UHGV virus genome: UHGV-0126759 | Strand: one strand, 5' to 3' | Source of the DNA: a virus | DNA: 16,087 nt | Shown here: one piece after another, positions 1,145-16,087 of the stretch | Layout of the letters: every line of letters starts with the position of its first letter | Position numbering within the stretch: position 1 is the stretch's first letter | Made by a program: the position numbers and the translations under genes | The notes under the pieces: model-generated | Database searches by the model: none | What the model was told of the DNA's origin: nothing | Seen by the model: only the letters and a program-made list of their open reading frames with translations

Positions 1145-1353
1145 TGAACTTACGTTGGCCGATCGCAGCTGCTGTGTTGTTCTGTATTTATATCGCCGTC
1201 AGTACCAGTACCCGCACTGCAGAACGTCGCGAGACCGCAACCAGTACGTTCAGAATGTGTATTGATCGAGTAGACCCGAACAATAGCACTTATCCCGACG
1301 CGGTGAACGCGTGTCGCAAAGCGGTTGCTGAGATATTGAAAGAGGAAAAATAA
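1144..1353 (+). CDS. Small protein (69 aa) with N-terminal hydrophobic segment, probable membrane anchor or signal peptide
   Basis: N-terminal stretch WPIAAAVLFCIYIAVSTS is hydrophobic. GGGGGA Shine-Dalgarno-like sequence upstream; start overlaps the upstream stop and its TAA overlaps the next ATG (TAATG at 1351-1355). Confidence 0.5.
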   Translation: MNLRWPIAAAVLFCIYIAVSTSTRTAERRETATSTFRMCIDRVDPNNSTYPDAVNACRKAVAEILKEEK

Positions 1354-3113
1354 TGGAAAACCTTACGCCGATTGAGATAGTGGCGCTATTCGACCGTTAC
1401 GTATATGGACAAACGCAGGCAAAGAAAATGCTGGCGATTGCGCTACGTAATCGATATCGTGCCAACAAACTCAACGTTGTGGACCGTATGTCGGTCCACA
1501 AACAGAACCTTTTAATAGAAGGTCCAACAGGCACGGGTAAAACGGCGTTGATGCGGGTACTGAAAACTAAATTCGGTTTACCTGTGCTGGAACTCGACAT
1601 GACCGCGTTTACAGAATCGGGCTACGTAGGCCGGGAAGTTACATCAATCGGCAAAGACTTAGCCGACTTAGCGCGTTCTGTCGAATTGCCCGACTGGTAT
1701 ATCGAACTGCGTACCAAACGTCGTGTCGAGACGGAAGTAGACGGTAATCGTCTTACTCGTGAAGAGTGGGAGCGTGAATCCCGTAAGGAAGTTGAACGCG
1801 AACTAGACGAGCGCGCAGCTGAGCGCCAGCTGCGGTATCAAGCTAAACGTGATCACACCGAACTATTACGGCGTCAGGGTATACTCGATCCGAAGGAGTT
1901 GTACGAAGAATACCAAGACATCTATTGTCTTCGCGCGTTTATGGTTGGCTATTGCCGTCAACACAATTTAACCTACGAAGACTTCGATATCTATTCCGTT
2001 ACACTCGGTGGTCGTACTGTGCAAGAATGGATAGATAAGATGTCGGAAATCGCAAGGGGTCTGTTCGGTGTCTCGTCAATTTCTGAACTGTTAAATAGTG
2101 AAGAATTTGAAAGCCAGATTGATAAGCTAATGTGCGGAGAAATACCGGACACGATTGGGTATATGGGTGAGATTATGTCGCTGATGGCTTTAGGCGAACA
2201 GATTGACTTATACGTTGATGCTGGTCAAAAGTTGATGTCGAATAACCTTCCGCTCTCATGTGCCGATGGCTCAGACTTCTACGATTTGTTCGACACGTTT
2301 AACGGCGACGACGAGGACGTCGAGCCGGCGGGCATCAATTGGTTCCCGATCGACGGTGCAGCGTTTACTATTCGCATGTTGTCTCGTTTGGAAGATCCTG
2401 AGAAGTGGTGTCGTTGGTGGGATGACGTGTTCGAAGGTTCTCCAGAATTCACCAAATACGCCGATGAACGGCTCTGGCATTACGAGATACCTGAAACAGT
2501 TGCACCAGAAAAAGAAACAGTCAGTCGCAAAGACCTCAAGAAACTACCCAACTGTAATGGACATGATTTCGTTGAGAACTTTGCGGTAGTGTTCCTGGAT
2601 GAGTTTGACAAACTTATCGAGGTTGATACACAACACTCTGCACGTGTATCCCGTAGTGGTGTGCAGCGCAGCTTGTTGAAAATGGTTGAAGGGGGTATTT
2701 ATCATGGCGTTGACACAACCAATGTGCTTTTTGTCGCTGCTGGGTCGTTTGCTCAAGCGCCTGTTTCTAAACTCATGGCAGAACTCCAGGGACGTTTTCC
2801 GTTAAGAGCGAAAATGTCTTCGCTGGACACCGAGGCACTGATTGCTATCTGTAAGTTGGATAACAGTGAGTTCCACGGCATGATTAAGTTGTTGAAAACC
2901 GAAGGGGTGGAAACGCAGTACGACATGGACACTTACACGTTCATCGCTGAGAAAACAATGGAAGCCAATGCTGTAGAGAACCTTGGTGCTCGTCGATTGG
3001 CGGATATTGTTCATCAGATCTTCTTACCTGCGTCTTACGACTCTTCGAAATATAAGCAATACGACATACGTGGTGAAACACTGCGTGGTCACGCTTGGTC
3101 AGAGAACGCGTAA
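1353..3113 (+). CDS. HslU/ClpX-family AAA+ unfoldase-like ATPase (586 aa) with an expanded insertion (I) domain
   Basis: Seen in sequence: Walker A GPTGTGKT (aa 57-64, nt 1521-1544), pore-loop GYVG (aa 90-93), Walker B VVFLDEFDK (aa 412-420, nt 2586-2612), SRSGVQRSLLKMVEGG box, LQGRFPLRA (Arg-finger region) and sensor-2 ENLGARRL. The N-terminus LTPIEIVALFDRYVYGQTQAKKMLAIALRNRYR is collinear with HslU as I recall it (MTPREIV...[21 protein letters not shown]). AGAGGA Shine-Dalgarno 8 nt upstream. Confidence 0.8.
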   Translation: MENLTPIEIVALFDRYVYGQTQAKKMLAIALRNRYRANKLNVVDRMSVHKQNLLIEGPTGTGKTALMRVLKTKFGLPVLELDMTAFTESGYVGREVTSIGKDLADLARSVELPDWYIELRTKRRVETEVDGNRLTREEWERESRKEVERELDERAAERQLRYQAKRDHTELLRRQGILDPKELYEEYQDIYCLRAFMVGYCRQHNLTYEDFDIYSVTLGGRTVQEWIDKMSEIARGLFGVSSISELLNSEEFESQIDKLMCGEIPDTIGYMGEIMSLMALGEQIDLYVDAGQKLMSNNLPLSCADGSDFYDLFDTFNGDDEDVEPAGINWFPIDGAAFTIRMLSRLEDPEKWCRWWDDVFEGSPEFTKYADERLWHYEIPETVAPEKETVSRKDLKKLPNCNGHDFVENFAVVFLDEFDKLIEVDTQHSARVSRSGVQRSLLKMVEGGIYHGVDTTNVLFVAAGSFAQAPVSKLMAELQGRFPLRAKMSSLDTEALIAICKLDNSEFHGMIKLLKTEGVETQYDMDTYTFIAEKTMEANAVENLGARRLADIVHQIFLPASYDSSKYKQYDIRGETLRGHAWSENA

Positions 3114-4611: not shown

Positions 4612-4929
4612 TTGCCAAAGCTGGATATAACAGTTAAGTCGGGGCTGAAATATTTGGCACCCGACTGGGACTTTCTGATGGACTACAAGAAGTCTGACAA
4701 AGGCCCCGACGCAGAAGCTGCGTATACCAAACGCTACCTGCAGAAACTTAGTCGGTTGTTTGATGAAGACACTGATAAGTTGATAGAGATTCTCCGCCAG
4801 GGCGAGGTCGTACTAATGTGCTATTGCCCACCGGGGAAATTCTGTCATCGCCACTTGCTAGTTTCTTACCTTATTGAAATCGGTGAGTGGTTCGGTTATG
4901 AAGTAATTTACATGGGCGAGTTATCGTAA
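4612..4929 (+). CDS. Small Cys/His-motif protein (105 aa), possibly DUF4326-like
   Basis: C-terminal motif LMCYCPPGKFCHRHLL (C-x-C-x5-C-H-x-H) resembles, from memory, the CWCxPxxCHxDVL signature of DUF4326 proteins. The start is TTG at 4612 with a weak Shine-Dalgarno; an alternative ATG lies at 4678. Confidence 0.45.
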   Translation: MPKLDITVKSGLKYLAPDWDFLMDYKKSDKGPDAEAAYTKRYLQKLSRLFDEDTDKLIEILRQGEVVLMCYCPPGKFCHRHLLVSYLIEIGEWFGYEVIYMGELS

Positions 4930-5336: not shown

Positions 5337-5350
5337 CACCGTACGAGTAG

Positions 5351-5390
5351 GCTACCACACGATCATATGTGTGGTAGCTTATTTTTTTTT
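5351..5390 (+). terminator. Rho-independent terminator T1
   Basis: Perfect 10-bp stem GCTACCACAC (5351-5360) and GTGTGGTAGC (5369-5378) with 8-nt loop, followed by TTATTTTTTTTT (5379-5390). Sits between the stop of the 4941-5336 gene and the start of the next gene. Confidence 0.8.
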
Positions 5391-5406
5391 GTTTCTGGAG
5401 GAAATT

Positions 5407-7356
5407 GTGACGACGAAACCTATAATCCGCAACTTTGCCGAGTTGGTCGAATATACTACAGAGACAATGCTAACCTTGGATCTTCCTGAGGTCTACGACC
5501 CGAGTGTAAGTCTGTCCGTAGATCAGAATGTAGACTACGATTATATCGGGGTCGTGACGGGAAAAAGCAACGTTACCAACCCCACAAACCACAAAGTGGT
5601 AATGTATGCTTACACCACCGGGGAGTATTTGCTAGGTGAAGCCCCTCTTGATGCCTCAGGGGCGTTTTCTTTTAAACGTACGTGGGCCGGTGCTAAACAG
5701 TTTAGACTAATCAATATATCAACTGGAGAGTGGATTACAACCCTGGAATTTCCTCTATGTATACGCAGTTACTTAATGCCCAGCGACGCCGAACCTGATG
5801 TTATCAAGGTAATGAAAGATCGATGTTACACGTACGATCAGGCGGTGGCAGCTTTAGCACTAATGGCTATAGATCACGGAGCCGTTGAGAAATATGTTAA
5901 AGGGCTTTGTGCTTTAGTGGACACAGACGGTGGTATTAAGTTTTATGTAAATCGTTTGTCTGCCAAGTCTCCACGTAACTATTATCGGATGGGCAATGTG
6001 GCATGGGTATTATACGCCCTTGCTTTTTACCTAGAGAAATATCCAAACGGCACCTTAGTTGGTCAAGTTAGGAGTAAGCTCACTCTTTCGCTCAGTTGGG
6101 TTGAAGGATTCCGTGTTAGCGATGTAAACGATAGGAGATACGGCTTATATCTCGGGGGTAAAGGCCGCTTTATTACAAACCCTGATGGTACGCAAACGTT
6201 CGATGAAAATTATGTAGCACCGTTCTCGGCCTTGGAACATTGTGTTGATTTGTGGTTTTTATTCGAGATATTGGGAAGGGTTGGATTTGATAGCTACGCC
6301 GCGAAGGCGATAGAGTTAGGCAATCTAATTTTAGACAAGTTTTGGATAGAAGAAGAGGGTCGATTGCGTCAAGGCGTTAGAGCCGATGTCGATGACGACG
6401 CTGCCGCTTTAGACCAGTCAAGCTGGGGTGGATTGTTTATCGCTAAGTTCAAACCGGAGCTGGCTTCGCAGTGTCACAGCTACATGGAAAAGTTTCGAGC
6501 AGTAACGTCCGAATGCAGCGGTTACACACCTTATAAGGTTGAATTGGGTTATCCGACTGCGGTCGACGGCGTTTGGGTTGAAGGAACTGCCGGTGTTGCC
6601 TTATTTGAAAGACAATTAGGGAACGATACTAGGGCAATTGAACTAATTAATAATATCGATGTTCTCCTGGGTGAACACGGTTATCGCGATTCGTGCGATG
6701 ACCCAACTTACGACACTTTACCTAATTGGCCGTCGACAACAAATACCGCCTGGGTGATTTTGGCCTGCGTACCAAGCGGCTTTTGGTTAGTTGATAAACC
6801 TGCACTGAATGCAAAATACAGCCCCCCTAATCGTTTTACACCTGACCTTAGATTAGACTCCAAGGGCCTCGTTGTGGCGTTAATTAATCACGATAACGGA
6901 TTGTCATTATCGCCTGACGAGATTGTAATAAGCGGAGTGGGGCCTATCGACTTAGGTGTTGAAAGTACCCGTACCGCACAAGCGTACATTGCAAAAGCAC
7001 GTAAACCTAACGGCAAGAAGGTTACCGTCTATTACGACCGTCTAGTTGCTAATAAGATTATCGACCCGCAAGGACCGATACTGGTTACTGTAGCTCCCGG
7101 CGACACCTATGCTGATTTAGCGACAGTTGTAAACCAGTTATGCGGTTTAAACTTGTCACGTGAAGACATCTCGACGGGGGTTATTACACCAACAAACGAG
7201 CCGTTGATTGCACCGATGAGTGACGATTCGCCGGCTTGGACGGCTACCTTTACATTCACGGCGTTTAATGAAAAAGAAGCTGTGGCAAGTCTGGATGAAG
7301 AAACTGTTTTATGCATCGGTGATGATGCAGTGTTAACCTACGGAGACGATGCATAA
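5407..7356 (+). CDS. Large hypothetical protein (about 649 aa from GTG 5407); aromatic-rich, possibly a helical-repeat carbohydrate-active enzyme with a C-terminal beta-rich domain
   Basis: The ORF track starts at 5371, but that would run through the terminator stem and T-tract; GTG at 5407 is in frame and lies 6 nt after a GGAGG Shine-Dalgarno (5396-5400). Helix-pair segments such as YDQAVAALALMAIDHG and NVAWVLYALAFYLEKYPNG resemble (alpha/alpha)-toroid glycosidase or lyase folds, which is an inference. Stop TAA overlaps the next ATG. Confidence 0.65.
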   Translation: MTTKPIIRNFAELVEYTTETMLTLDLPEVYDPSVSLSVDQNVDYDYIGVVTGKSNVTNPTNHKVVMYAYTTGEYLLGEAPLDASGAFSFKRTWAGAKQFRLINISTGEWITTLEFPLCIRSYLMPSDAEPDVIKVMKDRCYTYDQAVAALALMAIDHGAVEKYVKGLCALVDTDGGIKFYVNRLSAKSPRNYYRMGNVAWVLYALAFYLEKYPNGTLVGQVRSKLTLSLSWVEGFRVSDVNDRRYGLYLGGKGRFITNPDGTQTFDENYVAPFSALEHCVDLWFLFEILGRVGFDSYAAKAIELGNLILDKFWIEEEGRLRQGVRADVDDDAAALDQSSWGGLFIAKFKPELASQCHSYMEKFRAVTSECSGYTPYKVELGYPTAVDGVWVEGTAGVALFERQLGNDTRAIELINNIDVLLGEHGYRDSCDDPTYDTLPNWPSTTNTAWVILACVPSGFWLVDKPALNAKYSPPNRFTPDLRLDSKGLVVALINHDNGLSLSPDEIVISGVGPIDLGVESTRTAQAYIAKARKPNGKKVTVYYDRLVANKIIDPQGPILVTVAPGDTYADLATVVNQLCGLNLSREDISTGVITPTNEPLIAPMSDDSPAWTATFTFTAFNEKEAVASLDEETVLCIGDDAVLTYGDDA

Positions 7357-7829: not shown

Positions 7830-10800
7830 ATGCGCAAATTTAAAATCTCTGCTAAACGACATGCGTTGAACTATGCGATGTCGCTGGCTTACGGACATCA
7901 GGACTTTGTTCGCCGCAATACCGGTCTCACAAACGACGCCCACAATGACCATTATCTGATTAACCCAGAAGGGGTGCTATCTAATAACCGGCATTTCATT
8001 GCTGACTCCATGGCAGTGTATCAACCTAATGGTGACGCCACCACAGAAGGTCAATCGTTGCTGATTATTGGCTACTGTCACATGTACATTGCTACCAAAA
8101 ACCAGATGTGGTTAGATGCGGCGATTCGTGCATGGGAAGCGTACGCTACCTACTATTACGCAGGTCAGGCCATTCCTGAGTCACCGCAACGTTGGATTTG
8201 TAACTGGCTAGTTAACGGTAAAGAACCGGTGCTGTCAGACTATCCGGTGCATCCGACCGAGCCAACCCACGGTGGTTACAAGTGTGTACCGGTAACGTTT
8301 ACGAACGGGCGTTGTCAGATACCCCAAGGCGCACCGTTCTTTGGTGAATATCTGAACAATTTCTTTTCTGCGCATCGTGGCCATCCTACCTGGGGCGCGG
8401 TTAATGCTGACGTACAGAAAATTAAGGAATCGGAAGACGGGTTAATTGACTGGTCTAAAGTCCCTGATTACTTAATCACCAATCCAGAGAAACCTTACGA
8501 TGTAAAAGCGTGGGTAGACTGGAACAGGATGTTAAACGACCCAACCGGATATACCCCAATATGGGGTGGTTCTACCTCGAAAGGTCCGCGGTACGAACCT
8601 GACTGGTTTGTTGTGTGGACGGGTGAGAAGGTTCAAGACGGCGAAGTCATCGAATCCGGTTTACCTGATGCCCAGAAAGGAACCGTACAATTAAAGGACA
8701 CCAGTATTAACGGTGTATATTTGATTAACTACGCTTCCCAGGTACCTGTAGAGCACGGCGGATATTTGTTTGACCGCAATGAGCCGTGGCACAACCGTCC
8801 GGTTCATACCCCGTTAAAAGGGTCTGTTAACCAGATGGGTAACGCGGCAGATGCGGAAGTGTGGTTTATTGATGCCTGTTATCTCCTCTGGCGTATCACA
8901 GGTGAACCGCGCTATAAAGCCGCACTAGACTCGGTGTTCTATACAGCACACGAATACACGTATATCGATGCGAAGGACAAGTTTTTCCGTCGCTCTAAGT
9001 TAGCCGAAACACCATTTACAGATGGTATCTCGTACGACTATAAATACCCCAGCACCGTTGAGGTCGCTTACAGTCGTGATGAAAATGGTGACATTGTGCT
9101 CCGTTCTGAGGAAGCTGTGCAGAACTTTATGGAACAGCAAGCCGTGCGTTTCAGGATAAACAGTCAATCGAAGTTACGTGTGACGTATGGCGGTGTTTGC
9201 GACAACGGTGATGCGCTTGCGTGTAAAGTGATGGTGGATATCAACCCCGTTAAAGCGGATACTGAAGAAGTAAACTGGTACGGCTGTACGCTTCCAGGAT
9301 CAACATCGATGGAAGTAAAACAGCATGACATCGGTTTAGGGCATCTGGCCAGAATGACTAATCCGGCCAACGGCGAAGATTACATCATTGCCGATGCGCG
9401 AGCATGTTCAGATTACGGTGGGTGTACGTGGCAGGAGAAGTTTGAGAGCAACATCTACGATGGTCGTTCAGGCACAATCGTAGAAGCGTTATTCCCGAAC
9501 GACGATGCGGGCTTCATTATCGGTTTCTGGTTAACTGATGCTGGAGTTGCGCCCCCACAGTCAATTGTCTATCGTGCTGATGCCGATTTCAACTTCCGTT
9601 TCGAAGATACCAAGAAGTGGCGTTGGTGGTGGATGTTGCCCGCGACTAACGGGGAATGGAAACAGGTTATTATTCGCCCTGAAGACGCAACACTCTCGGG
9701 CTATCAACCTGACCACGATACTGATGTCGAAACAAAACCGTCTGCGCCAAACTACACAACTATCGATCAGGTAACCATACTGCCCGATTCGGCTGTGGAG
9801 AATGCGCACTTTAGCTGGTATTGCGTAAACGATGTTCCGCCACTGTTTAATGCAGATGATGGCTGGACATTAACGTTTCGCATCGCAATTCGGGGAGGTT
9901 CTGCATTTACGGGTAAAGTGGGCGATTGTACGATAAAAGATTACCGTCTTGACTCGCTCGCGTATTGTCCAGGAACGATACCGTTCTCGAACATTTATTC
10001 GGAAGGAACGTATCAGCTAGGTGCATGGCACGGGATGCCGTATCCTGGCTATCAGTATCCGTTTATGTACACCATACACACCGATGATCGCTACAAAGTC
10101 TGGCTCTTAAATCAGATTCGGTTTATGCACGATTCACAAACCAACTACCAGGCGCAGCTAGGTGAGTTAGGTCCAGGTTGTGCGGCGTATATTTGGAACC
10201 GTTGGGATAACTACACTTACGGACCGGCAGATACGTGGACAACGTTCCATTGGGGAGATGGACATCCGTGGGCAGGTTATCAGCCGCGCGCGTATAACGC
10301 CGCTGCGCGTTGTTGGTACGAATTAGCTGTGCGTGGTAAAGAGGTTCCACCAGAGCTAGTAGAGTACGTTGAAAATTGGGCTAAGTGGCTCGTAGGGTTC
10401 TTAGACCGCTTTGACAACCACACGCCGAATGAATTCCCTACGGCACCAAATAAACCGGTGTGGGTAGAGAATGATTTCACAGCACATATGTGTGCGCTCT
10501 GGATAGCAGGCAGCGCTTATGCGGCAATGGCTGGCTGTAAAGTGGAAGGGCTGAACCGGATTATGGATATGGGGATGAAAGAGATGGGTGACAACTTCAC
10601 CGTCACAGACATTCCAGGAAAAGCCATTAACGGTGCCTGGTCTCCGTGGGCAAACCCTACCACGGATAACGGTCAGGCTTTTGGGTTTTATACTGGAGAA
10701 GCGATGCGTGCAATCGGGTTGTATCTCCTCTATAAAGAACACGGCCCAGGACATGATATTTATCGTGACTTGGCAATACCCGACCACACAACAGCTTCAC

Positions 10801-10847
10801 TCGATATAACGTTTACTATCCCAGACGATCCGCTCGAAACTAATTAA
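7830..10847 (+). CDS. Large hypothetical protein, 1005 aa; Trp/Tyr-rich, possibly a polysaccharide-active enzyme or virion-associated depolymerase
   Basis: Uninterrupted 3-kb ORF starting 3 nt after the upstream stop. Very aromatic-rich, with helix-pair motifs (LLIIGYCHMYIATKNQMWLDAAIRAWEAYATYYY; VWFIDACYLLWRITGEPRYKAALDSVFYTAHEY; FGFYTGEAMRAIGLYLLYKEHG). The function is inferred only from composition and motif style. Confidence 0.7.
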   Translation: MRKFKISAKRHALNYAMSLAYGHQDFVRRNTGLTNDAHNDHYLINPEGVLSNNRHFIADSMAVYQPNGDATTEGQSLLIIGYCHMYIATKNQMWLDAAIRAWEAYATYYYAGQAIPESPQRWICNWLVNGKEPVLSDYPVHPTEPTHGGYKCVPVTFTNGRCQIPQGAPFFGEYLNNFFSAHRGHPTWGAVNADVQKIKESEDGLIDWSKVPDYLITNPEKPYDVKAWVDWNRMLNDPTGYTPIWGGSTSKGPRYEPDWFVVWTGEKVQDGEVIESGLPDAQKGTVQLKDTSINGVYLINYASQVPVEHGGYLFDRNEPWHNRPVHTPLKGSVNQMGNAADAEVWFIDACYLLWRITGEPRYKAALDSVFYTAHEYTYIDAKDKFFRRSKLAETPFTDGISYDYKYPSTVEVAYSRDENGDIVLRSEEAVQNFMEQQAVRFRINSQSKLRVTYGGVCDNGDALACKVMVDINPVKADTEEVNWYGCTLPGSTSMEVKQHDIGLGHLARMTNPANGEDYIIADARACSDYGGCTWQEKFESNIYDGRSGTIVEALFPNDDAGFIIGFWLTDAGVAPPQSIVYRADADFNFRFEDTKKWRWWWMLPATNGEWKQVIIRPEDATLSGYQPDHDTDVETKPSAPNYTTIDQVTILPDSAVENAHFSWYCVNDVPPLFNADDGWTLTFRIAIRGGSAFTGKVGDCTIKDYRLDSLAYCPGTIPFSNIYSEGTYQLGAWHGMPYPGYQYPFMYTIHTDDRYKVWLLNQIRFMHDSQTNYQAQLGELGPGCAAYIWNRWDNYTYGPADTWTTFHWGDGHPWAGYQPRAYNAAARCWYELAVRGKEVPPELVEYVENWAKWLVGFLDRFDNHTPNEFPTAPNKPVWVENDFTAHMCALWIAGSAYAAMAGCKVEGLNRIMDMGMKEMGDNFTVTDIPGKAINGAWSPWANPTTDNGQAFGFYTGEAMRAIGLYLLYKEHGPGHDIYRDLAIPDHTTASLDITFTIPDDPLETN

Positions 10848-10853
10848 GTGTAT

Positions 10854-10897
10854 ACCAGCTATCCTTCGGGGTGGCTGGTACGCTTTATTTTATTTCA
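10854..10897 (+). terminator. Rho-independent terminator T2
   Basis: Stem ACCAGC (10855-10860) and GCTGGT (10875-10880) enclosing an inner CC-TTCG-GG tetraloop hairpin, followed by a T-rich tract (CGCTTTATTTTATTTC). It lies 7 nt after the stop of the 1005-aa gene. Confidence 0.7.
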
Positions 10898-10974
10898 GAT
10901 AGATGTTATCTCAGTGAACCTCTGAAATTTACGTTTCAATCAGAACTTATGTCATGTATTAAGGAGCAATTAAA

Positions 10975-11307
10975 ATGTCCAAAGTCTATCACATAGCGGT
11001 ATTGCGTCAGGCAACTGACCTTGATGGTGACGGTGAACTTCGAATGCAGGAAGCCATTCTGAGCACTGTTAAAGAACTTAACCAAGCAAACAATTTCGAT
11101 GCACGCTTCGAAGCGTTGCCTGTAAGCCGTAACGCTTTCTACGGCAGTCAAATCCTGGCAACCCAGTTTGCGATGGCTTTAAGTGACTTGCGCAATAATC
11201 CTAGTCCTGAAACCGCGGCGAAGATGAACAAACTGTCGTTATGGATGAATAACCTGGATGCTCCCGCAACATCCATTGTAAATGGTTTGGGGGTGGTTAA
11301 TGGTTAG
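10975..11307 (+). CDS. Hypothetical protein, 110 aa
   Basis: TTAAGGAG Shine-Dalgarno followed 9 nt later by ATG; first gene after terminator T2. Confidence 0.6.
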   Translation: MSKVYHIAVLRQATDLDGDGELRMQEAILSTVKELNQANNFDARFEALPVSRNAFYGSQILATQFAMALSDLRNNPSPETAAKMNKLSLWMNNLDAPATSIVNGLGVVNG

Positions 11308-11635
11308 AGTAATCCGTGTTGCCAGACCAATGCGTCTCAATAGGTCGCCAATGATAAATCGTGATATCAGTGAAGCTGTAAAACAGTTGTCGAATATCGA
11401 CGGTTACACCTTTAAAGTGATAACACTGTACGACTACCCAGAAGGCAAAGTTCCGCAAGAGGCGCTGGATAAATTCGTTAATGTATTAGACGATTGCCTT
11501 AAGAGCCCAACGGACGTAAATCTTATCAAACTAAACACCATGTCCCTTGAGCTGTGCCGGCTGCGTAAAATGGGCATTCATGCTCGCATCGGTAAAGGTG
11601 ACCAAACGTTGGCCGAATACTGGGCTAAACAATAA
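11300..11635 (+). CDS. Hypothetical protein (about 111 aa from ATG 11300; alternative ATG at 11282)
   Basis: ATG at 11300 is preceded by a G-rich Shine-Dalgarno-like GGGGGTGG and overlaps the upstream stop (ATGGTTAG); the 11282 ATG has no Shine-Dalgarno. Confidence 0.55.
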   Translation: MVRVIRVARPMRLNRSPMINRDISEAVKQLSNIDGYTFKVITLYDYPEGKVPQEALDKFVNVLDDCLKSPTDVNLIKLNTMSLELCRLRKMGIHARIGKGDQTLAEYWAKQ

Positions 11636-11662
11636 GCTATTTTAAATCCTAAGGAGCATTAA

Positions 11663-12181
11663 GTGAATATTACCATGAACCTGTACACCAAACGGGAACG
11701 TAACGTTTTAGAATCTGGCGTTGCCCCAGAAGTATTGGCTGCGGGGGATATTAGTATCGACCCACTGAAAGTGAAAGTCGCGGAACTGTTCCCTCGTGAT
11801 GAATGGGACATCTGGTATTTCCGTTGTTCGTCGGTATTGAATGCAATCAAACAACTGTCTGATTATCAGCCTGGCCCGTACATCGGTACCTGGCACTGGT
11901 ACGTCCCACGCACCCCAAACTTCCTTTACCTGCACGACGATGATAAACGTACTCATATTCGCACTGTAGCGACGCCTGCGCGTTTGGAGCGTTATCTGGA
12001 GCTAATCCACGACCGGCCTCGTAACGAGCTGCAGAGCATCGTAGAGGTGCTCAGACAGGTACCTTTAGACGGTATACTGGAACTGGACATGAAAATTGCT
12101 GATCGGCCTCGCCACTACTGGGAATTTTCCTGGGTAGATGCGAAATATGAAAACCTTAACGTTATCTATCTGAAGCGTTAA
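11663..12181 (+). CDS. Hypothetical protein, 172 aa
   Basis: GTG start 6 nt after an AAGGAG Shine-Dalgarno (11651-11656); an alternative ATG lies at 11675. No recognisable domain. Confidence 0.6.
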   Translation: MNITMNLYTKRERNVLESGVAPEVLAAGDISIDPLKVKVAELFPRDEWDIWYFRCSSVLNAIKQLSDYQPGPYIGTWHWYVPRTPNFLYLHDDDKRTHIRTVATPARLERYLELIHDRPRNELQSIVEVLRQVPLDGILELDMKIADRPRHYWEFSWVDAKYENLNVIYLKR

Positions 12182-12191
12182 GGGGGACAGG

Positions 12192-12512
12192 ATGTTGAAC
12201 TGGTTACTTGCGCTGATTAACAAGCGACAAAAACAACTGTACGAAGAAAACCGAGAATTGGCTGCCGCTAACCGTCGTGTACAGGCCGATAACTTGCAGT
12301 TAAGACACGACCTCGCGAAACTGGGTGTTAACGCGAGTAGGCTTTGCACGCACATTAGCCGGTGCCACGATATCATCGAACGTATTGGACACTACCATCT
12401 TACGTCTCCTGCGCGTCGCGTCTATGACGCGGCCGTCCAGGGATTGAAAGATACCAGGAATGTGTACGACGAGATGTTAGAAGAGTTTAGCAAACGTGAG
12501 GATAAATACTAA
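12192..12512 (+). CDS. Hypothetical protein, 106 aa, probably coiled-coil at the N-terminus
   Basis: AAGGGGGA Shine-Dalgarno 5 nt upstream of ATG; heptad-like charged N-terminus (QKQLYEENRELAAANRRVQADNLQLRHDLAKL); stop overlaps the next start (TAATG). Confidence 0.6.
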   Translation: MLNWLLALINKRQKQLYEENRELAAANRRVQADNLQLRHDLAKLGVNASRLCTHISRCHDIIERIGHYHLTSPARRVYDAAVQGLKDTRNVYDEMLEEFSKREDKY

Positions 12513-12895
12513 TGGAAATGCCAACGAACACCGACTTAGCACTGGCAATCGAACACATGAAAAACCATCAGCTGACGTTACTGAACGCAAGCACAGAAGG
12601 GCAACGTCAAGGGTATGCGCTCGTTGCAAAAGCAGCGTTAGAACTTAACAAGATTCTACTCGCTAAACTTTACGGGCTGGAAAACAGCGTGCTCCATGCG
12701 TCGCACCTGGGCGAAGCCAGCGAGTTAGTTACGAATGTGCGGCTGTATGCAAGTCGTGAAATGGAACGTTTAACCAACGAATGGAATGTCCAGTGTAACG
12801 GCGAGCGTGCTGATAAAGATCCGCGTAAAGTCGCACTGACGCCGGGCGTGTACATCAAAGACGGCACCATTGACGAATACAGCGGATTTAACTGA
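12512..12895 (+). CDS. Hypothetical protein, 127 aa
   Basis: Translationally coupled to the upstream gene (TAATG); GAGGA Shine-Dalgarno 9 nt upstream. Confidence 0.6.
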   Translation: MEMPTNTDLALAIEHMKNHQLTLLNASTEGQRQGYALVAKAALELNKILLAKLYGLENSVLHASHLGEASELVTNVRLYASREMERLTNEWNVQCNGERADKDPRKVALTPGVYIKDGTIDEYSGFN

Positions 12896-12918
12896 TCGGC
12901 GGATAAGGGTGATTGTGA

Positions 12919-13344
12919 ATGGTAACCATAGACGTAGCTATCTCTATCGAGCTTCAACGCATCGGTGTAGGTACACTAAAACTTCGTTATCGTGATTTAC
13001 CGCATTACAACAAGATGTTTGATGTTGGGGTGATAAAGTTTTATAACCGGTACGGGCCAAGAGAACTATGTCTATGGTTTGTCGAGTTAGCGATAACTTA
13101 TGGCGAGTTTTATCATCCTAATGTACCGCATGTCGAACATGTGTCAAGAGGGCACCTGGAAACTTCCAGAGAGTTCTATCAGCGATTGTATGGCGCGATG
13201 GAGGAGTCCGCACCCATCGACTACGACGTACCACCTGAACTGTTATTAATCGACCATGAAGGAGAAGCCGGTGTCTATTTCATTACGGGGACTGACTATT
13301 CACGAGATTCAGAAATATTTACTCGAGGGCGGGAAACTGACTGA
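12919..13344 (+). CDS. Hypothetical protein, 141 aa
   Basis: ATG start with an AAGGGTGA Shine-Dalgarno-like sequence upstream; its 3' end overlaps the next gene out of frame. Confidence 0.55.
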   Translation: MVTIDVAISIELQRIGVGTLKLRYRDLPHYNKMFDVGVIKFYNRYGPRELCLWFVELAITYGEFYHPNVPHVEHVSRGHLETSREFYQRLYGAMEESAPIDYDVPPELLLIDHEGEAGVYFITGTDYSRDSEIFTRGRETD

Positions 13345-13576
13345 CGACTATCAAACCGCAGATATGTTGCTACAGTCATTTGTACCGTTACGTGCTGAGT
13401 ATTACGAAATCGCGTTCCTGGGCGATGAATATTGTGTCCGCACGCAAGGGCGTGAATACGAAGCAGTTCGCGTACCGCGCACACTCGGCGGGGTGATGAT
13501 ACTTATCGCTAATATCGAAGCACTCAATGCGAAATGTGCGTTATACATCGCACAGGGAGGTCGCAATGGATTTTAA
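13271..13576 (+). CDS. Hypothetical protein (about 101 aa from GTG 13271; ORF-track start is ATG 13256)
   Basis: AAGGAG Shine-Dalgarno at 13259-13264 lies 6 nt before the in-frame GTG at 13271, whereas the ATG at 13256 has no Shine-Dalgarno. Overlaps the previous gene by about 74 nt in a different frame. Confidence 0.5.
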   Translation: MSISLRGLTIHEIQKYLLEGGKLTDDYQTADMLLQSFVPLRAEYYEIAFLGDEYCVRTQGREYEAVRVPRTLGGVMILIANIEALNAKCALYIAQGGRNGF

Positions 13577-13724
13577 GTGGGAACCATTATCGTTAGCAGA
13601 AGTTCGTAACAGAATCGATAAAGCTATTGCAAGGAGAAAACATGTTCGGCCTGTTTCAGGAGAAAAAACAGTTGCGTCGCCAATTAGAAATACTGGAATT
13701 GGAACTCAGCCTATCAAAGACTGA
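13566..13724 (+). CDS. Possible small protein (52 aa) or N-terminal part of a frameshifted product
   Basis: ATG at 13566 lies 5 nt after a GGAGG Shine-Dalgarno (13556-13560). The first 25 or so residues look protein-like (MDFKWEPLSLAEVRNRIDKAIARRK), but the remainder overlaps the next gene by about 83 nt and looks like low-complexity read-through. Confidence 0.3.
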   Translation: MDFKWEPLSLAEVRNRIDKAIARRKHVRPVSGEKTVASPIRNTGIGTQPIKD

Positions 13725-14043
13725 GTTGGAAATTTCGAAAGAAGCGTGGAAAAGAAATCTTGATGAATCTTTCGAAGAACGCCGTAAGCTTACGCGATTG
13801 CTTTCTGAGGAACAGTCTAAGAACCGGAAACTCGAAGACGAGCTACGGGATGCCCGACGAGATGCGGATCTGCGTGATAAGATGTTGGGATGGAACCTGG
13901 GTGCCCTAATCTATTTCATAGAGCAGCGTTGGGAACCAAAGACACTCCTTGAGTTACTCTATGAAAAACTCTCCTGCGTAGGTAAACGTTCTGCGGCCAT
14001 CGAGTATTTTCGTAGTCACGGTTTCGAGGTAAAAGATGAGTAA
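13642..14043 (+). CDS. Hypothetical coiled-coil protein (about 133 aa from ATG 13642)
   Basis: AAGGAG Shine-Dalgarno (13631-13636) 5 nt before ATG 13642; the ORF track starts earlier at TTG 13627. Strongly heptad-like charged sequence (QLRRQLEILELELSLSKTELEISKEAWKRNLDESFEERRKLTRLLSEEQSKNRKLEDELR). Confidence 0.6.
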   Translation: MFGLFQEKKQLRRQLEILELELSLSKTELEISKEAWKRNLDESFEERRKLTRLLSEEQSKNRKLEDELRDARRDADLRDKMLGWNLGALIYFIEQRWEPKTLLELLYEKLSCVGKRSAAIEYFRSHGFEVKDE

Positions 14044-14086
14044 AAATAACAGTTTGTTTTCCCTTTAACCATGGAAACCACAAGCA

Positions 14087-14419
14087 ATGAAAACGAAACG
14101 AACGTCAGTCGTGTTCCAGCAGGGACGTGCGCGATTCTATAAAGGTAAGAAACTCATTGGTACATTCGAGTATCAAGAGAACCAGCTAATCGTCGATGTT
14201 ATCATTCTCGGTTTAGCAGCGAAGTGGTCACCTTTAAAAAGGACATTAGCCAAACGTGCGATGGAGAAGCTCCGCCGCGACCAGATAAAAGCATTTAACA
14301 AACCTTTTCCACTTGAGGCGTACCGAGTACAGCCTCGTTGCGCACACATCACGACGTCACCCATGATTGCTAAGCTCGATGTGACCGATCTGAGAGAAAT
14401 GTTAACTGTACGGCCGTAG
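14087..14419 (+). CDS. Hypothetical protein, 110 aa
   Basis: ORF on the coding strand inside the operon; no clear Shine-Dalgarno, so the start is uncertain. Confidence 0.5.
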   Translation: MKTKRTSVVFQQGRARFYKGKKLIGTFEYQENQLIVDVIILGLAAKWSPLKRTLAKRAMEKLRRDQIKAFNKPFPLEAYRVQPRCAHITTSPMIAKLDVTDLREMLTVRP

Positions 14420-14446
14420 TGTCGTAGCCCCTTAAGGAGTATTTAA

Positions 14447-15250
14447 ATGTTAAAGCCACGCAAACAGAAAAGATTACAGTTTGTCAAAATACTGCATCCA
14501 CGATCACGCCGTGTCGTAGGCGGACGTCTCTACGTGGGTAAACACCGTAGTCGTCTTATCACCTGGTCGGCAATGGCCAACGTAGCCACCCAACTCCAGG
14601 CAATGGTTGAAGACCGTTGCCAGTTAAAAGGGGATTTCTTTCAAGAGAAGAAACCCTATCGTGATATCTTCCGTACACTAAAAGCGTGCTGGGTACTCAG
14701 CTGGGTGCCTGGCCGCGAACAACTTTATTTTCTGCGTAAGTTCCCACGCCCTATGCCGAAGGAAAACATTAGCGTTTTCTTAGACAAACTAAAACGCTTT
14801 AATGACATCGGCATAAACGCTAATAAAGAGCAGGTTTCTGCTACAGTAGCAGCCCGAAAACACTTACGCGATTATGTGGCCGATCGAGATGTTGAGTTCG
14901 CTTATATGACGCCGACTGTACCGCTGCTAAACGGTGATGCATTGAAAGCGAAGATGGAAGAGATCGCGTTGAAGTTTCCTAACATCAGACACATCGCACC
15001 AGACGCGGTACTACAGCTGAACACTGAAGGCTGCACGCGTTTACCGACAGTCTCTGACACGGTGTTAGTATCAACACCTGATGTTCCTGATGGAAAGTCG
15101 TTCCTTGAAATGATAAAGAAACGTACAGAGGGTGGATATCAACCGATCTTTCTGGATTCCCTTTCACAACATCCTGAAGTAGAACAAGAATTTAACATGA
15201 ACACTAACAGCCCTTACGACTCCCTATACAAGGACGATAATGATGCTTAA
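14447..15250 (+). CDS. Hypothetical protein, 267 aa, basic N-terminus MLKPRKQKRL
   Basis: TAAGGAG Shine-Dalgarno 8 nt before ATG; stop TAA at 15248-15250 overlaps the start of the next gene. Confidence 0.65.
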   Translation: MLKPRKQKRLQFVKILHPRSRRVVGGRLYVGKHRSRLITWSAMANVATQLQAMVEDRCQLKGDFFQEKKPYRDIFRTLKACWVLSWVPGREQLYFLRKFPRPMPKENISVFLDKLKRFNDIGINANKEQVSATVAARKHLRDYVADRDVEFAYMTPTVPLLNGDALKAKMEEIALKFPNIRHIAPDAVLQLNTEGCTRLPTVSDTVLVSTPDVPDGKSFLEMIKKRTEGGYQPIFLDSLSQHPEVEQEFNMNTNSPYDSLYKDDNDA

Positions 15251-15668
15251 GCCTAAGAAACGTAAAGATGGTGCGGTCATTTTCTCTCCGAGAATCGCTG
15301 TAGCAGTTGGTAAGAAATTACTGGTCCAGGACGGTAAGTGGGTCAGTGACGGATTCAGTCAGTACACCTCGCTATGCATGTCTTCCGAGATGAATCAGAT
15401 GCACGGGAAGAAAGTACGTGACCGACGATCTCAGATGCCAAAAGTTATCCGTGTTGTGGCCGGCTGGTATAAGCGATACATGAAAAAGAACTTCCCACAC
15501 GCAGCGCCGCCGTTTGAAGAAGGGTCTTTTGTTCGTACAGAACCCACCGAAGCGGGTGGCGAATTGCCGGTGCGTACCGGCACGGCGTATTCGACGCTGA
15601 CTTCCTTGTGTCGTCAGTCGTACGAAAAGCAGAAGGCGTTGAAGGACACTCTACTCCACATCAACTAG
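15240..15668 (+). CDS. Hypothetical protein, 142 aa, basic N-terminus MMLKPKKRKDG
   Basis: Tandem ATGATG at 15240-15245 lies 5 nt after an AAGGA Shine-Dalgarno (15230-15234) and overlaps the upstream gene by 11 nt. Followed by terminator T3. Confidence 0.6.
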   Translation: MMLKPKKRKDGAVIFSPRIAVAVGKKLLVQDGKWVSDGFSQYTSLCMSSEMNQMHGKKVRDRRSQMPKVIRVVAGWYKRYMKKNFPHAAPPFEEGSFVRTEPTEAGGELPVRTGTAYSTLTSLCRQSYEKQKALKDTLLHIN

Positions 15669-15704
15669 GATGACGCTTATCCCAAGGGTAGCGAATAAAG
15701 CAGT

Positions 15705-15740
15705 ACCCTACTCCTTCGGGAGTAGGGTTTCTTCTTTTTT
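15705..15740 (+). terminator. Rho-independent terminator T3
   Basis: Perfect 9-bp stem CCCTACTCC (15705-15713) and GGAGTAGGG (15718-15726) with a TTCG tetraloop, followed by TTTCTTCTTTTTTTG. Confidence 0.8.
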
Positions 15741-15839
15741 TGCCTAGTCCGATTACAATTATTTTCAGATATATATTACTTAGGTGAGAGTTAACAATTA
15801 ACTCTTATCTAATCGACCATTATCTTAAGGAGTTTTAAC
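15741..15839 (+). promoter_or_regulatory. AT-rich inter-operon region, presumed promoter for the gene at 15840
   Basis: The roughly 100-bp region between terminator T3 and the next Shine-Dalgarno (AAGGAG at 15826-15831) is AT-rich and contains TTACAA, TATATAT and TTAACA elements, but I could not fit a convincing sigma-70 -35/-10 pair with 16-18 bp spacing. The element may depend on a phage-specific factor. Confidence 0.2.
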
Positions 15840-16087
15840 ATGTACATTCTGAATAACGAACTTACTAAATACGCTAGCAAAAACCCGATTATGATTTCTT
15901 TCCTAATCGTGATGGCGGCCAACAAACAAGACCCTAGCGAATTCACTACTGAGGTCTTCGAAGAGATTATCGCCAACGCCAAAGAAGCCACGTTCCAGAC
16001 CACAGAACCTACTCGCGACGAGTTCCCTCTAGGTGAAGCCGGCGATGTAATGTTTAACGACATGATTGCTTCGTACTACATCAATAG
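15840..16087 (+). CDS. Hypothetical protein, 3'-truncated by the window end (at least 82 aa)
   Basis: ATG at 15840 lies 8 nt after an AAGGAG Shine-Dalgarno; the frame stays open to the window end (MYILNNELTKYASKNPIMISFLIVMAANKQDPSEF...). It is absent from the ORF track only because no stop falls within the window. Confidence 0.6.
   Translation, partial: MYILNNELTKYASKNPIMISFLIVMAANKQDPSEFTTEVFEEIIANAKEATFQTTEPTRDEFPLGEAGDVMFNDMIASYYIN

Follow-up and report, generated by a model that had tools for sequence, protein, structure and literature searches.

A twelve-gene, putatively early operon of an SPN3US-like jumbo phage, bounded by predicted terminators and phiKZ-type promoter motifs

In phiKZ, OBP, 201phi2-1, N1M2 and AR9, early operons carry an extended AT-rich element with a shared core (TTTCARRYAKATATTAT... 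/ TATATTAC), and the targets predicted for this element of the phiKZ group are the non-virion RNA polymerase genes and operons of small proteins, most of which have no assigned function. Early promoters of the group have been described as AT-rich conserved motifs and its late promoters as short TATG-like elements without an extended motif (PMC7598289), and the published early-promoter consensus is TTTCARRYAKATATTATYWAAGTGWA for N1M2/OBP, with TATATTAC as the phiKZ core (PMC7058600).

Two sequenced blocks are closest to the locus considered here, gp125-gp134 of SPN3US (JN641803, 109971-113883) and ACEC001_1270-1370 of E. coli phage vB_EcoM_EC001. Both match it in gene content and order, in the terminators and promoter motifs on either side and, at 94-100% protein identity, in O1-O9, and all their genes are annotated as hypothetical. 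In the Erwinia phage vB_EamM_Stratton (Erskinevirus), a syntenic operon (gp142-gp151) has the same terminator-plus-promoter boundaries, as does the orthologous block of SPAsTU. The Stratton operon contains orthologs of O1, O3, O4, O5, O7, O10, O11 and O12, lacks O2, O8 and O9 and has the extra genes gp148 and gp150; three of its consecutive genes begin with MLKP(R/K)K, and its homologs of O11 and O12 are far longer (417 and 306 aa).

We analysed a window of 16,087 nucleotides, the whole stretch of DNA studied, in which the cluster occupies positions 10975-15668. Its identity to Seoulvirus genomes is 94-98%, and it is an ordinary phage gene cluster of an already sequenced kind. The DNA is that of an SPN3US-like giant Salmonella/E. 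coli phage and represents a new mosaic member of Seoulvirus, a group of phiKZ-related jumbo phages that resemble SPN3US and form a phage nucleus. The window combines an O10 like that of SPN3US, which EC001 lacks, with full-length O11 and O12 as in EC001, whereas in SPN3US O11 is truncated and O12 deleted; no record in the phage collection spans the whole block, the best covering 92%. According to these comparisons the conserved core common to Erwinia jumbo phages is O1, O3, O4, O5 and O7, and no homologs of the cluster proteins were detected outside the Enterobacterales jumbo phages. The preliminary description of this DNA, made without database searches, offered no identification and missed both the known jumbo-phage locus and the promoter motifs by which the unit is defined. 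Its boundaries are the following:

T2, 10853-10895, plus strand: predicted intrinsic terminator, stem 10853-10880, UUCG loop and U-rich tail, closing the gp124 homolog
P1, 10889-10922, plus strand: putative early-type promoter motif for the virion RNA polymerase, TTTATTTCAGATAGATGTTATCTCAGTGAACCTC, 37.2 bits
T3, 15705-15741, plus strand: predicted intrinsic terminator, stem 15705-15728, UUCG loop and U-run
P2, 15759-15792, plus strand: putative early-type promoter motif of the next operon, 40.6 bits, with the gp135 homolog starting at 15840

T2 folds at -22.2 kcal/mol (z -5.4; equalled by 0 of 200 shuffles) and T3 at -19.8 kcal/mol (z -3.9), and both are predicted to be intrinsic (rho-independent) terminators, each being a stable GC-rich hairpin followed by a U-run at a gene end. 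SPAsTU and Stratton likewise have a hairpin with a U-run where T2 lies, its stem differing in sequence, and T3 has about 82% nucleotide identity in the Erwinia phages Stratton, phiEaH2 and Asesino. Inside the operon we found two other plus-strand terminator-like matches, both weaker and neither comparable to T2 or T3, and no promoter motif scoring 8 bits or more with a position-weight matrix.

Right after each terminator stands a 34-nt motif, with exactly two copies in the window, that is newly recognised here as a probable phiKZ-group early promoter, of the class used by the virion RNA polymerase. It agrees with the early-promoter consensus published for N1M2, OBP, 201phi2-1 and phiKZ (compared with Table 2 of PMC7058600), the sites being at 10893 for P1, which has two mismatches to the consensus, and at 15763 for P2, the core of which includes the phiKZ core. 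Using the rule element-(6N)-G+1 (PMC5312081), we predict transcription starts at G 10916, which gives a 59-nt leader, and at G 15786. In the SPN3US genome, a position-weight matrix seeded with the two window copies and built from the same SPN3US sites that it counts finds 24 plus-strand sites, against 0-2 in shuffles; 22 of the 24 are intergenic, all are upstream of plus-strand genes, and one precedes gp34/35, the genes of the non-virion RNA polymerase. Of the 21 genes that come first downstream of these sites, none encodes one of the 86 virion proteins (P = 2.5e-4). Consensus, genome-wide recurrence and class of downstream gene all point to an early promoter of the phiKZ group, the timing and the start site being predictions here.

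The twelve genes between the terminators are the following (gp numbers are those of SPN3US, where every counterpart is annotated as hypothetical):

O1, 10975-11307, plus strand: 110 aa, pI 5.2, gp125, TAAGGAG Shine-Dalgarno sequence
O2, 11300-11635, plus strand: 111 aa, pI 9.4, gp126, start overlapping the O1 stop (ATGGTTAG)
O3, 11663-12181, plus strand: 172 aa, gp127
O4, 12192-12512, plus strand: 106 aa, pI 9.0, gp128, helical
O5, 12512-12895, plus strand: 127 aa, gp129, start overlapping the O4 stop (TAATG)
O6, 12919-13344, plus strand: 141 aa, pI 5.1, gp130
O7, 13271-13576, plus strand: 101 aa, gp131, GTG start within O6
O8, 13566-13724, plus strand: 52 aa, pI 10.5, annotated in EC001 and not in SPN3US
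O9, 13642-14043, plus strand: 133 aa, gp132, AAGGAG site, N-terminal half coiled-coil-like
O10, 14087-14419, plus strand: 110 aa, pI 10.5, gp133, weak Shine-Dalgarno sequence, phrog_18363
O11, 14447-15250, plus strand: 267 aa, pI 9.5, TAAGGAG site, truncated in SPN3US (gp134)
O12, 15243-15668, plus strand: 141 aa, pI 10.0, opening with MLKPKKRK, deleted in SPN3US

The arrangement first described, twelve plus-strand ORFs of 52-267 aa between T2 and T3, was borne out, with 97% of the 4694 bases coding and a strong terminator at either end. Its TAAGGAG-type sites at nearly every start need qualification: a strong Shine-Dalgarno sequence, defined by a duplex energy of at most -8 kcal/mol, which 2.8% of random positions reach, is present at 8 of the 12 starts (O1, O2, O3, O4, O7, O8, O9 and O11), a moderate one at O5, O6 and O12 and a weak one at O10, but the literal TAAGGAG occurs only at O1, O3 and O11. 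The best-supported start differs from that of the longest ORF for O2 (11300), O7 (GTG 13271), O8 (13566) and O9 (13642), and the longest-ORF start of O3 (GTG 11663) is supported. Overlapping stops and starts, also described earlier, were found at six junctions, O1/O2 (8 nt), O4/O5 (1 nt), O6/O7 (74 nt), O7/O8 (11 nt), O8/O9 (83 nt) and O11/O12 (8-11 nt). All twelve ORFs differ from the 78%-identical relative SPAsTU chiefly at third codon positions and, because of this bias together with the strong Shine-Dalgarno sites, we consider them to be real genes. No transmembrane segment is predicted in the cluster proteins, which are therefore read as soluble.

O1 is 99% identical in SPN3US, 49% in SPAsTU and 25% in Stratton (gp142), and belongs to phrog_17751, of unknown function. 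O2 has a GGGGGTG Shine-Dalgarno sequence (-9.7 kcal/mol) before its ATG at 11300, is 47% identical in SPAsTU, falls in phrog_33168 and is not found in Stratton. O3 is conserved more widely than any other gene in the operon, being present in 73 Enterobacterales jumbo-phage records. O4, with the Shine-Dalgarno sequence AAGGGGGA (-11 kcal/mol), is 78% identical to Stratton gp144 over its N-terminal 23 aa, and O5 (phrog_19750) is 62% identical in SPAsTU and 54% in Stratton (gp145). O6 is 52% identical in SPAsTU, gives a weak match with the syntenic Stratton gp146 and has no match in PHROG or Pfam. The GTG of O7 has AAGGAG 5 nt upstream; the protein is 86% identical in SPAsTU, with 13/10/53 differences at the three codon positions, and 43% identical to a Stratton ORF that lacks annotation. 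O8, which has the Shine-Dalgarno sequence AGGGAGG (-11.7 kcal/mol), is an open frame in SPAsTU with its start and stop conserved, and it too is considered coding because the changes in its first 25 codons are mostly synonymous (about 10, against 2 non-synonymous). Of the two proteins earlier described as strongly coiled-coil, O9 kept this assignment in a crude heptad test (6 of 200 shuffles equally good), while for O4 it was weakly supported (19 of 200); library matches of O9 are confined to its coiled-coil segments, and O9 is not found in Stratton.

The 3' module O10-O12 encodes very basic proteins (pI 9.5-10.5) that are also common to Erwinia jumbo phages. O10 is 77% identical in SPAsTU and 62% in Stratton (gp147), and has no match in the E. 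coli phages EC001 and Lh1B. Its C-terminus weakly resembles that of a major capsid protein (Pfam E 2.4e-4), a candidate similarity rejected after reciprocal tests failed. In O11 the N-terminal domain, about 105 aa long, is conserved and opens with an invariant MLKPRK, and an alignment of the O11 family (13 sequences, of 244-459 aa plus one truncated copy of 146 aa) contains 24 invariant N-terminal positions; the 146-aa SPN3US gp134 is a truncated O11, 96% identical over the first 146 aa only. O12 corresponds to the N-terminal domain of Stratton gp151 (306 aa) and aligns with the O11 family in a profile-profile comparison (hhalign E 6.8e-4 over 82 columns from residue 1, with a reported probability of only 27%), sharing the motifs MLKP(R/K)K, GKK and (K/R)KxFP. 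We therefore read O11 and O12 as tandem paralogs, O12 being a paralog of the N-terminal domain of O11; a link of O10 to either was unsupported (profile comparison E 0.04-0.14). Since EC001 lacks O10, and SPN3US lacks O12 entirely as well as the C-terminal half of O11, these genes appear dispensable in at least some hosts.

That none of the proteins has an assignable motif, as had been noted, was confirmed: Pfam, NCBIfam and PADLOC gave nothing meaningful and no family of known function for the 12 ORFs, and 10 of the 12 proteins fall in PHROG families, all of unknown function. PDB sequence searches with O3, O5, O6, O10, O11 and O12 returned only weak matches (E > 0.07) and one spurious match. 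Structure prediction, proposed earlier as a check, gave a confident AlphaFold model for O3, without an informative structural neighbour of known function, and a poor AlphaFold2 model for O11 (pLDDT 51). According to the supplementary tables of PMC5694885, SPN3US gp125-137 are not among the 86 virion proteins, either in wild-type or in the mutants analysed. On this evidence, which comes from the SPN3US orthologs and not from this phage, the cluster proteins are probably not structural components of the virion; recognisable replication proteins were also absent among the 12, and the possibility raised earlier that these might be conserved structural or replication proteins was thus not realised.

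We lean, by a little, towards reading the cluster as a single early transcription unit, in a nucleus-forming jumbo phage related to phiKZ and similar to SPN3US, with non-structural products of the takeover phase. As soon as the DNA has been ejected, the multisubunit RNA polymerase packaged in the virion would start at the 10889-10922 motif (predicted start G 10916), transcribe all twelve genes as one polycistronic mRNA and stop at T3 (15705-15741), and translation would use the strong Shine-Dalgarno sites and coupling where genes overlap. The products, small, soluble and non-virion, would most probably work in the cytoplasm of the host in the takeover phase, before or during formation of the phage nucleus, and the basic proteins of the 3' module probably bind nucleic acid or ribosomes. 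Timing and polymerase are proposed by analogy with other phages, because the literature searched gave no Seoulvirus transcripts. The location of the cluster between late structural genes (gp124 and the head paralog family) counts against an early reading. Upstream lies the tail-associated gp124 homolog (7830-10847), and downstream the gp135-137 genes are followed by head paralog family B (gp138-154).

This position, the two coiled-coil-like proteins, such as many scaffolds have, and the lack of transcript data for the phage group in the literature searched would also suit a middle or late unit of non-packaged assembly factors (chaperones, scaffolds) serving the flanking tail and head genes. 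We regard such a unit as improbable, as the early-type motif in SPN3US never stands immediately before a gene for a virion protein and is found before the genes of the non-virion RNA polymerase, a strong terminator insulates the operon from the tail gene, and the late promoters of the group are short and TATG-like, with no extended motif (PMC7598289). The variation at the 3' end, with presence/absence and truncation variants among phages that are 94-98% identical, raises the alternative of a mobile or decaying accessory cassette, comprising the cluster or at least its 3' third, that now has little function and is perhaps a homing or insertion remnant; O11 and O12 match only N-terminal parts of longer Erwinia-phage proteins, and the capsid-like C-terminus of O10 would fit as well. 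Against this, every ORF diverges chiefly at third codon positions, O11 (267-286 aa) and O12 (142-165 aa) versions are kept in several diverged relatives, the capsid resemblance fails in reciprocal tests, the operon boundaries are conserved across genera, and no HNH, GIY-YIG, LAGLIDADG or other endonuclease domain, integrase or transposase was found in any ORF, so that we think a cassette very improbable.

A host-takeover or anti-defence role, suggested in the preliminary description as a place to look, is plausible for the operon: the early-class promoter motif fits a takeover-stage role and the products seem to be non-virion, but none of the 12 proteins is similar to a characterised inhibitor or to known anti-defence or host-takeover families, and most of the operon is syntenic across genera, only its 3' end (O10-O12) varying among close relatives. 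The stricter proposal of a dedicated anti-defence island, in which each protein inhibits one system (restriction-modification, CRISPR, CBASS, Thoeris), draws on the same early, small, non-virion proteins without known relatives and on 3' gene content that differs between phages of different hosts (E. coli, Salmonella, Proteus). It appears unlikely, given that neither the family searches nor the PDB comparison of six proteins yielded anything usable, that O3, O5, O7 and O10 are 43-62% identical at the same position in Erwinia phages whereas typical inhibitors turn over fast, and that the DNA of nucleus-forming phages is already protected against many systems that target DNA (PMC13282480).

Under the early-operon reading, the locus is a clean, probably early transcription unit, with predicted starts at 10916 and, for the next operon, 15786, defined in the SPN3US genetic model system. 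It reveals no new mechanism and is a reasonable place to seek host-takeover factors; as few of the early proteins that nucleus-forming jumbo phages make have been characterised, it helps to direct experiments. No SPN3US amber mutant maps to the cluster in the published work examined, so the locus is without a known phenotype. As candidates for functional work we rank O3 first, being widely conserved without a structural relative, and then the basic, partly paralogous and naturally deleted O10-O12. It is a speculative idea, to which we attach little probability, that the operon encodes clade-specific early factors with new folds. O3, found in 73/73 detected records, could be a component for an early infection compartment or for host takeover. 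In the MLKP(R/K)K proteins the N-terminal hexapeptide is invariant despite synonymous nucleotide changes, and these proteins could carry a new signal for sorting or turnover, or a new module that binds nucleic acid or ribosomes.

Forty-four phage records match the region 10850-15750, with nucleotide identities that range from 80 to 99% and reach 90% or more in 42 of the records. In the closest, Escherichia phage vB_EcoM_EC001, the match covers 92% of the region at 97.6% identity; Salmonella phage SPN3US, which is phiKZ-related and forms a phage nucleus (PMC13282480), matches over 84% of the region at 97.9% identity. The full-length matches all come from jumbo phages of about 240 kb, mostly of the genus Seoulvirus. 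As no single record covers more than 86% of the full 16-kb window, it represents a new mosaic member of the Seoulvirus-type group. In SPN3US numbering the operon is gp125-gp134, each annotated as 'hypothetical protein', and its surroundings are as follows.

Features flanking the operon
7830-10847, homolog of gp124, tail-associated, upstream of the operon
10853-10880, + strand, terminator T2, UUCG-loop hairpin followed by a U-run (-22.2 kcal/mol, z -5.4)
15705-15728, + strand, terminator T3, UUCG-loop hairpin followed by a U-run (-19.8 kcal/mol, z -3.9)

The arrangement given in the preliminary description, twelve consecutive + strand ORFs between two terminators with overlapping stops and starts, was confirmed: the ORFs (O1 to O12, in order) cover 97% of 10975-15668, both flanking hairpins are stable and followed by U-runs, the two other + strand terminator-like matches within the operon are far weaker, and at six junctions neighbouring ORFs share between 1 and 83 nt. 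Coding was tested using codon-position differences with SPAsTU, a diverged relative with approximately 78% identical DNA; in all twelve ORFs third positions differ most and second positions least (differences at positions 1/2/3 of 38/29/88 for O3, 13/10/53 for O7 and 71/54/150 for O11). O8, of 52 aa, lies for nearly its whole length within overlaps with neighbouring genes; its first 25 codons carry about 10 synonymous and 2 non-synonymous changes with respect to SPAsTU, in which its start, frame and stop are all conserved, and we treat it as a real gene. Two long out-of-frame overlaps, O6/O7 (74 nt, 13271-13344) and O8/O9 (83 nt, 13642-13724), are unusual for phage genes; both frames are open in SPAsTU and the O6/O7-like overlap is seemingly also present in the Erwinia phage Stratton.

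Using a Shine-Dalgarno duplex cut-off of -8 kcal/mol or better, reached by 2.8% of random positions, eight of the twelve starts have a strong site, three have a moderate one and that of O10 is weak. The same analysis led to revised starts for O2 (11300), O7 (GTG, 13271), O8 (13566) and O9 (13642) and supported the GTG start of O3 at 11663. Two proteins had also been described as strongly coiled-coil: in a crude heptad test this was supported for O9 (6 of 200 shuffles equally good) but only weakly for O4 (19 of 200). No transmembrane segments were predicted in the operon proteins, and an Rfam scan of the window returned no RNA family.

Directly after each terminator lies the motif TTTCAGATA(G/T)AT(G/A)TTA(T/C), present in the window as exactly two copies (10893 and 15763). 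When the complete SPN3US genome was searched with this motif as seed, a 34-nt matrix was obtained (consensus AAAATTTCAGATAGATATTATCTAAGTGAGAGTT), and no further window site reaches 8 bits with it. SPN3US has 24 + strand sites of at least 14 bits, compared with 0-2 in shuffled genomes; 22 of these are intergenic, all are upstream of + strand genes, and one directly precedes the RNA polymerase genes gp34/35, which are absent from the virion proteome. Of the 21 genes that come first after a motif site, not one encodes a virion protein (P = 2.5e-4). The predicted early promoter of jumbo phages N1M2 and OBP, TTTCARRYAKATATTATYWAAGTGWA, is almost identical to the consensus, which also includes the phiKZ core TATATTAC (PMC7058600, Table 2). 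According to reviews, every jumbo phage that encodes RNA polymerases carries such an AT-rich motif ahead of its early operons, and the virion-packaged polymerase recognises it (PMC7598289). In AR9, phiKZ and phiR1-37, transcription starts 6 nt past the element (PMC5312081), and by this rule starts are predicted at G 10916 and G 15786. Motif and terminators would most simply be read as bounding a single mRNA, made early and about 4.8 kb long. Its timing is suggested by analogy, the literature searched containing no transcript data for Seoulvirus. A reading of the motif as a host sigma-70 promoter was rejected, as the TTTCAG and TATTAT elements are merely 5 nt apart and a sigma-70 scan picked neither site.

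The core of the motif, AGATAGATATTATCT, is partly palindromic and gives a weaker opposite-strand echo at several sites (16-21 bits; for example the SPN3US pairs 7386/7412, 15610/15636, 72680/72706 and 191598/191624), to which the four weaker opposite-strand matches in SPN3US correspond. Tandem motif pairs occur at three SPN3US places described as intergenic (upstream of gp22, upstream of gp76 and a site inside gp30).

The SPN3US virion proteome comprises 86 proteins, including gp122, gp123, gp124 and then gp138 onward (PMC5694885); gp125-gp137 are missing from it, both in the wild type and in those mutants that were analysed (supplementary files 1 and 3 of the same paper). Since these proteins lie outside the virion proteome, the operon did not prove to consist of conserved proteins with known structural or replication functions, the outcome that the preliminary description had named as contrary to its view of the region as a place to look for host-takeover and anti-defence proteins. 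We consider it probable that this is an early, non-structural operon. The whole statement, that it is transcribed early by the virion polymerase and that its soluble, non-virion products act in host takeover, we favour by a narrower measure. A set of late assembly factors, which could likewise be missing from the virion, accounts for some of the data and has weaker support when set beside the early-type motif.

No motif had been assignable to these proteins from the sequence, and database searches gave the same result. Pfam had no match for 11 of the twelve, O10 alone having one sub-threshold match, and no domains were found by Pfam in the longer homologs from Stratton and SPAsTU (gp148-151 among them). 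Ten proteins belong to PHROGs of unknown function and two (O6 and O8) match none; O12 has a short, marginal match to the end of an RNA polymerase beta subunit PHROG (E 0.009). NCBIfam and PADLOC gave marginal matches at most, those of O9 being on coiled-coil segments, and PDB sequence and profile searches with O3, O5, O6, O10, O11 and O12 gave nothing usable. The match of O3 to 'VCPI-1' (8zo9, E 0.003) is spurious, resting on one short PGxY(I/L)GTWxW string; we took VCPI-1 to be a light-harvesting protein because the one paper that names it deals with an algal photosystem I light-harvesting complex.

O3 is present in 73 phage records, all of 224-251 kb, from Salmonella, E. coli, Erwinia, Cronobacter and Proteus hosts and at a similar map position throughout, and only 27 O3 clusters were retrieved when 1.84 billion representative proteins were searched exhaustively with a profile. 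Its AlphaFold2 model, from an 8-sequence alignment, is confident (pLDDT 87.6, pTM 0.83) and predicts an N-terminal helical part, two more helices and a three-stranded C-terminal sheet; in a Foldseek search of BFVD, a library of viral structures, the only neighbours were proteins from Erwinia phages Wellington and Derbicus (TM 0.82), which are uncharacterised.

The boundaries of the operon are also conserved between genera. SPAsTU has the same terminator and promoter-motif boundaries, as does the syntenic block gp142-gp151 of Stratton, of the genus Erskinevirus (sites of 39.5 and 42.7 bits). The Stratton block contains orthologs of O1 (25% identity), O3 (51%), O5 (54%), O7 (43%), O10 (62%) and O12 (72%), an O11 N-terminal domain 49% identical and a match to the N-terminus only of O4, and lacks O2, O8 and O9. 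Because of these boundaries and orthologs and the spread of O3, most of the operon is a clade-specific conserved unit and not a rapidly changing island. T2-equivalent hairpins keep their position in Stratton and SPAsTU, and their stem sequences differ. T3 and the next promoter are approximately 82% identical at the DNA level in Erwinia phages Stratton, phiEaH2 and Asesino; this block (15703-15842) comprises T3, the next early-promoter motif and the leader, and the flanking coding sequence is not detectable in these three phages at the DNA level, so that at this boundary regulatory DNA is better conserved than the neighbouring genes.

The 3' end is variable. EC001 and Lh1B lack O10, and SPN3US and several relatives have only the first 146 codons of O11 (gp134) and no O12, a deletion of approximately 0.78 kb; as phages with these natural variants are viable, neither O10 nor O12 nor the C-terminal half of O11 is essential in every host. 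In the best-supported reading the operon has a conserved core and a dispensable basic 3' module. A cassette that is decaying or mobile would explain some of the data, such as these deletions, and is less well supported given the shared boundaries; a dedicated anti-defence island also agrees with some of the data and has less support, PADLOC having given at most marginal matches.

O11 and O12 both begin with MLKP(R/K)K. Stratton has three consecutive genes of this kind (gp149, gp150 and gp151), SPAsTU also has three, and their start mostly overlaps the preceding stop within ATGCTTAA. Across 13 O11 relatives, some with no more than about 33% identity, residues 1-6 are always the same, and as their codons change synonymously the constraint acts at the peptide level. 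Comparing the family profiles of O12 and O11 (E 6.8e-4, 82 columns from residue 1, reported probability just 27%) moderately supports paralogy; separate profile comparisons gave no support for O10 as a third paralog. The O11 model is poor (pLDDT 51), residues 10-55 or so alone reaching 70-78 as three strands and a helix. O10, O11 and O12 are very basic (pI 10.5, 9.5 and 10.0), a weak hint that they may bind nucleic acids or ribosomes.

O10 residues 79-107 (window 14321-14407, VQPRCAHITTSPM...) match positions 606-634 of PF25620 (E 2.4e-4), the C-terminal 29 positions of the phiKZ major-capsid model, and VQPR.(A/P)HI.TS is invariant in three aligned orthologs. Direct alignment with the SPN3US capsid protein was no better than 22 of 300 shuffles and a reciprocal profile search of the SPN3US six-frame translation gave E 1.1, leaving the resemblance unsupported.

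The locus is already public as hypothetical genes and its promoter class is known. New here are the delimited unit with predicted start sites and corrected gene starts, the boundaries conserved across genera, the natural deletion variants, the MLKPRK paralog family and an O3 without any structural relative; these results help experiment planning and are unsurprising to a specialist.

Other features of the window
1353-3113, + strand, AAA+ ATPase of 586 aa (Pfam AAA_2 and AAA; HslU-like in the annotation of relatives)
4612-4929, + strand, DUF488 protein of the active N3a subclade (Pfam E 1.9e-11), homolog of SPN3US gp120
5345-5394, + strand, very strong terminator-like hairpin (17 pairs, long T-run) after the gp121 homolog
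5371-7356, + strand, ORF of 661 aa (N-terminal ~480 aa, tail-fibre PHROGs; C-terminal ~170 aa, DUF7941)

The neighbours of the DUF488 gene are otherwise unannotated. Unlike T2 and T3, the hairpin at 5345-5394 is not followed by the early-promoter motif, which fits a different, probably late, expression class for the downstream tail genes. DUF7941 is the candidate head paralog family B protein gp122, which in SPN3US has merely 177 aa, and by its domain matches the 661-aa ORF may be a fibre-like domain fused to a gp122-type module; its true start is uncertain because the listed GTG overlaps terminator T1. The ATPase is roughly at the place of SPN3US gp117, a truncated prohead protease paralog (PMC5694885). 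At this locus EC001 has only a 75-aa 'heat shock protein' ORF, possibly a remnant, and SPAsTU a full HslU-like gene; one locus alternates between a protease paralog and a protease-partner-type ATPase.
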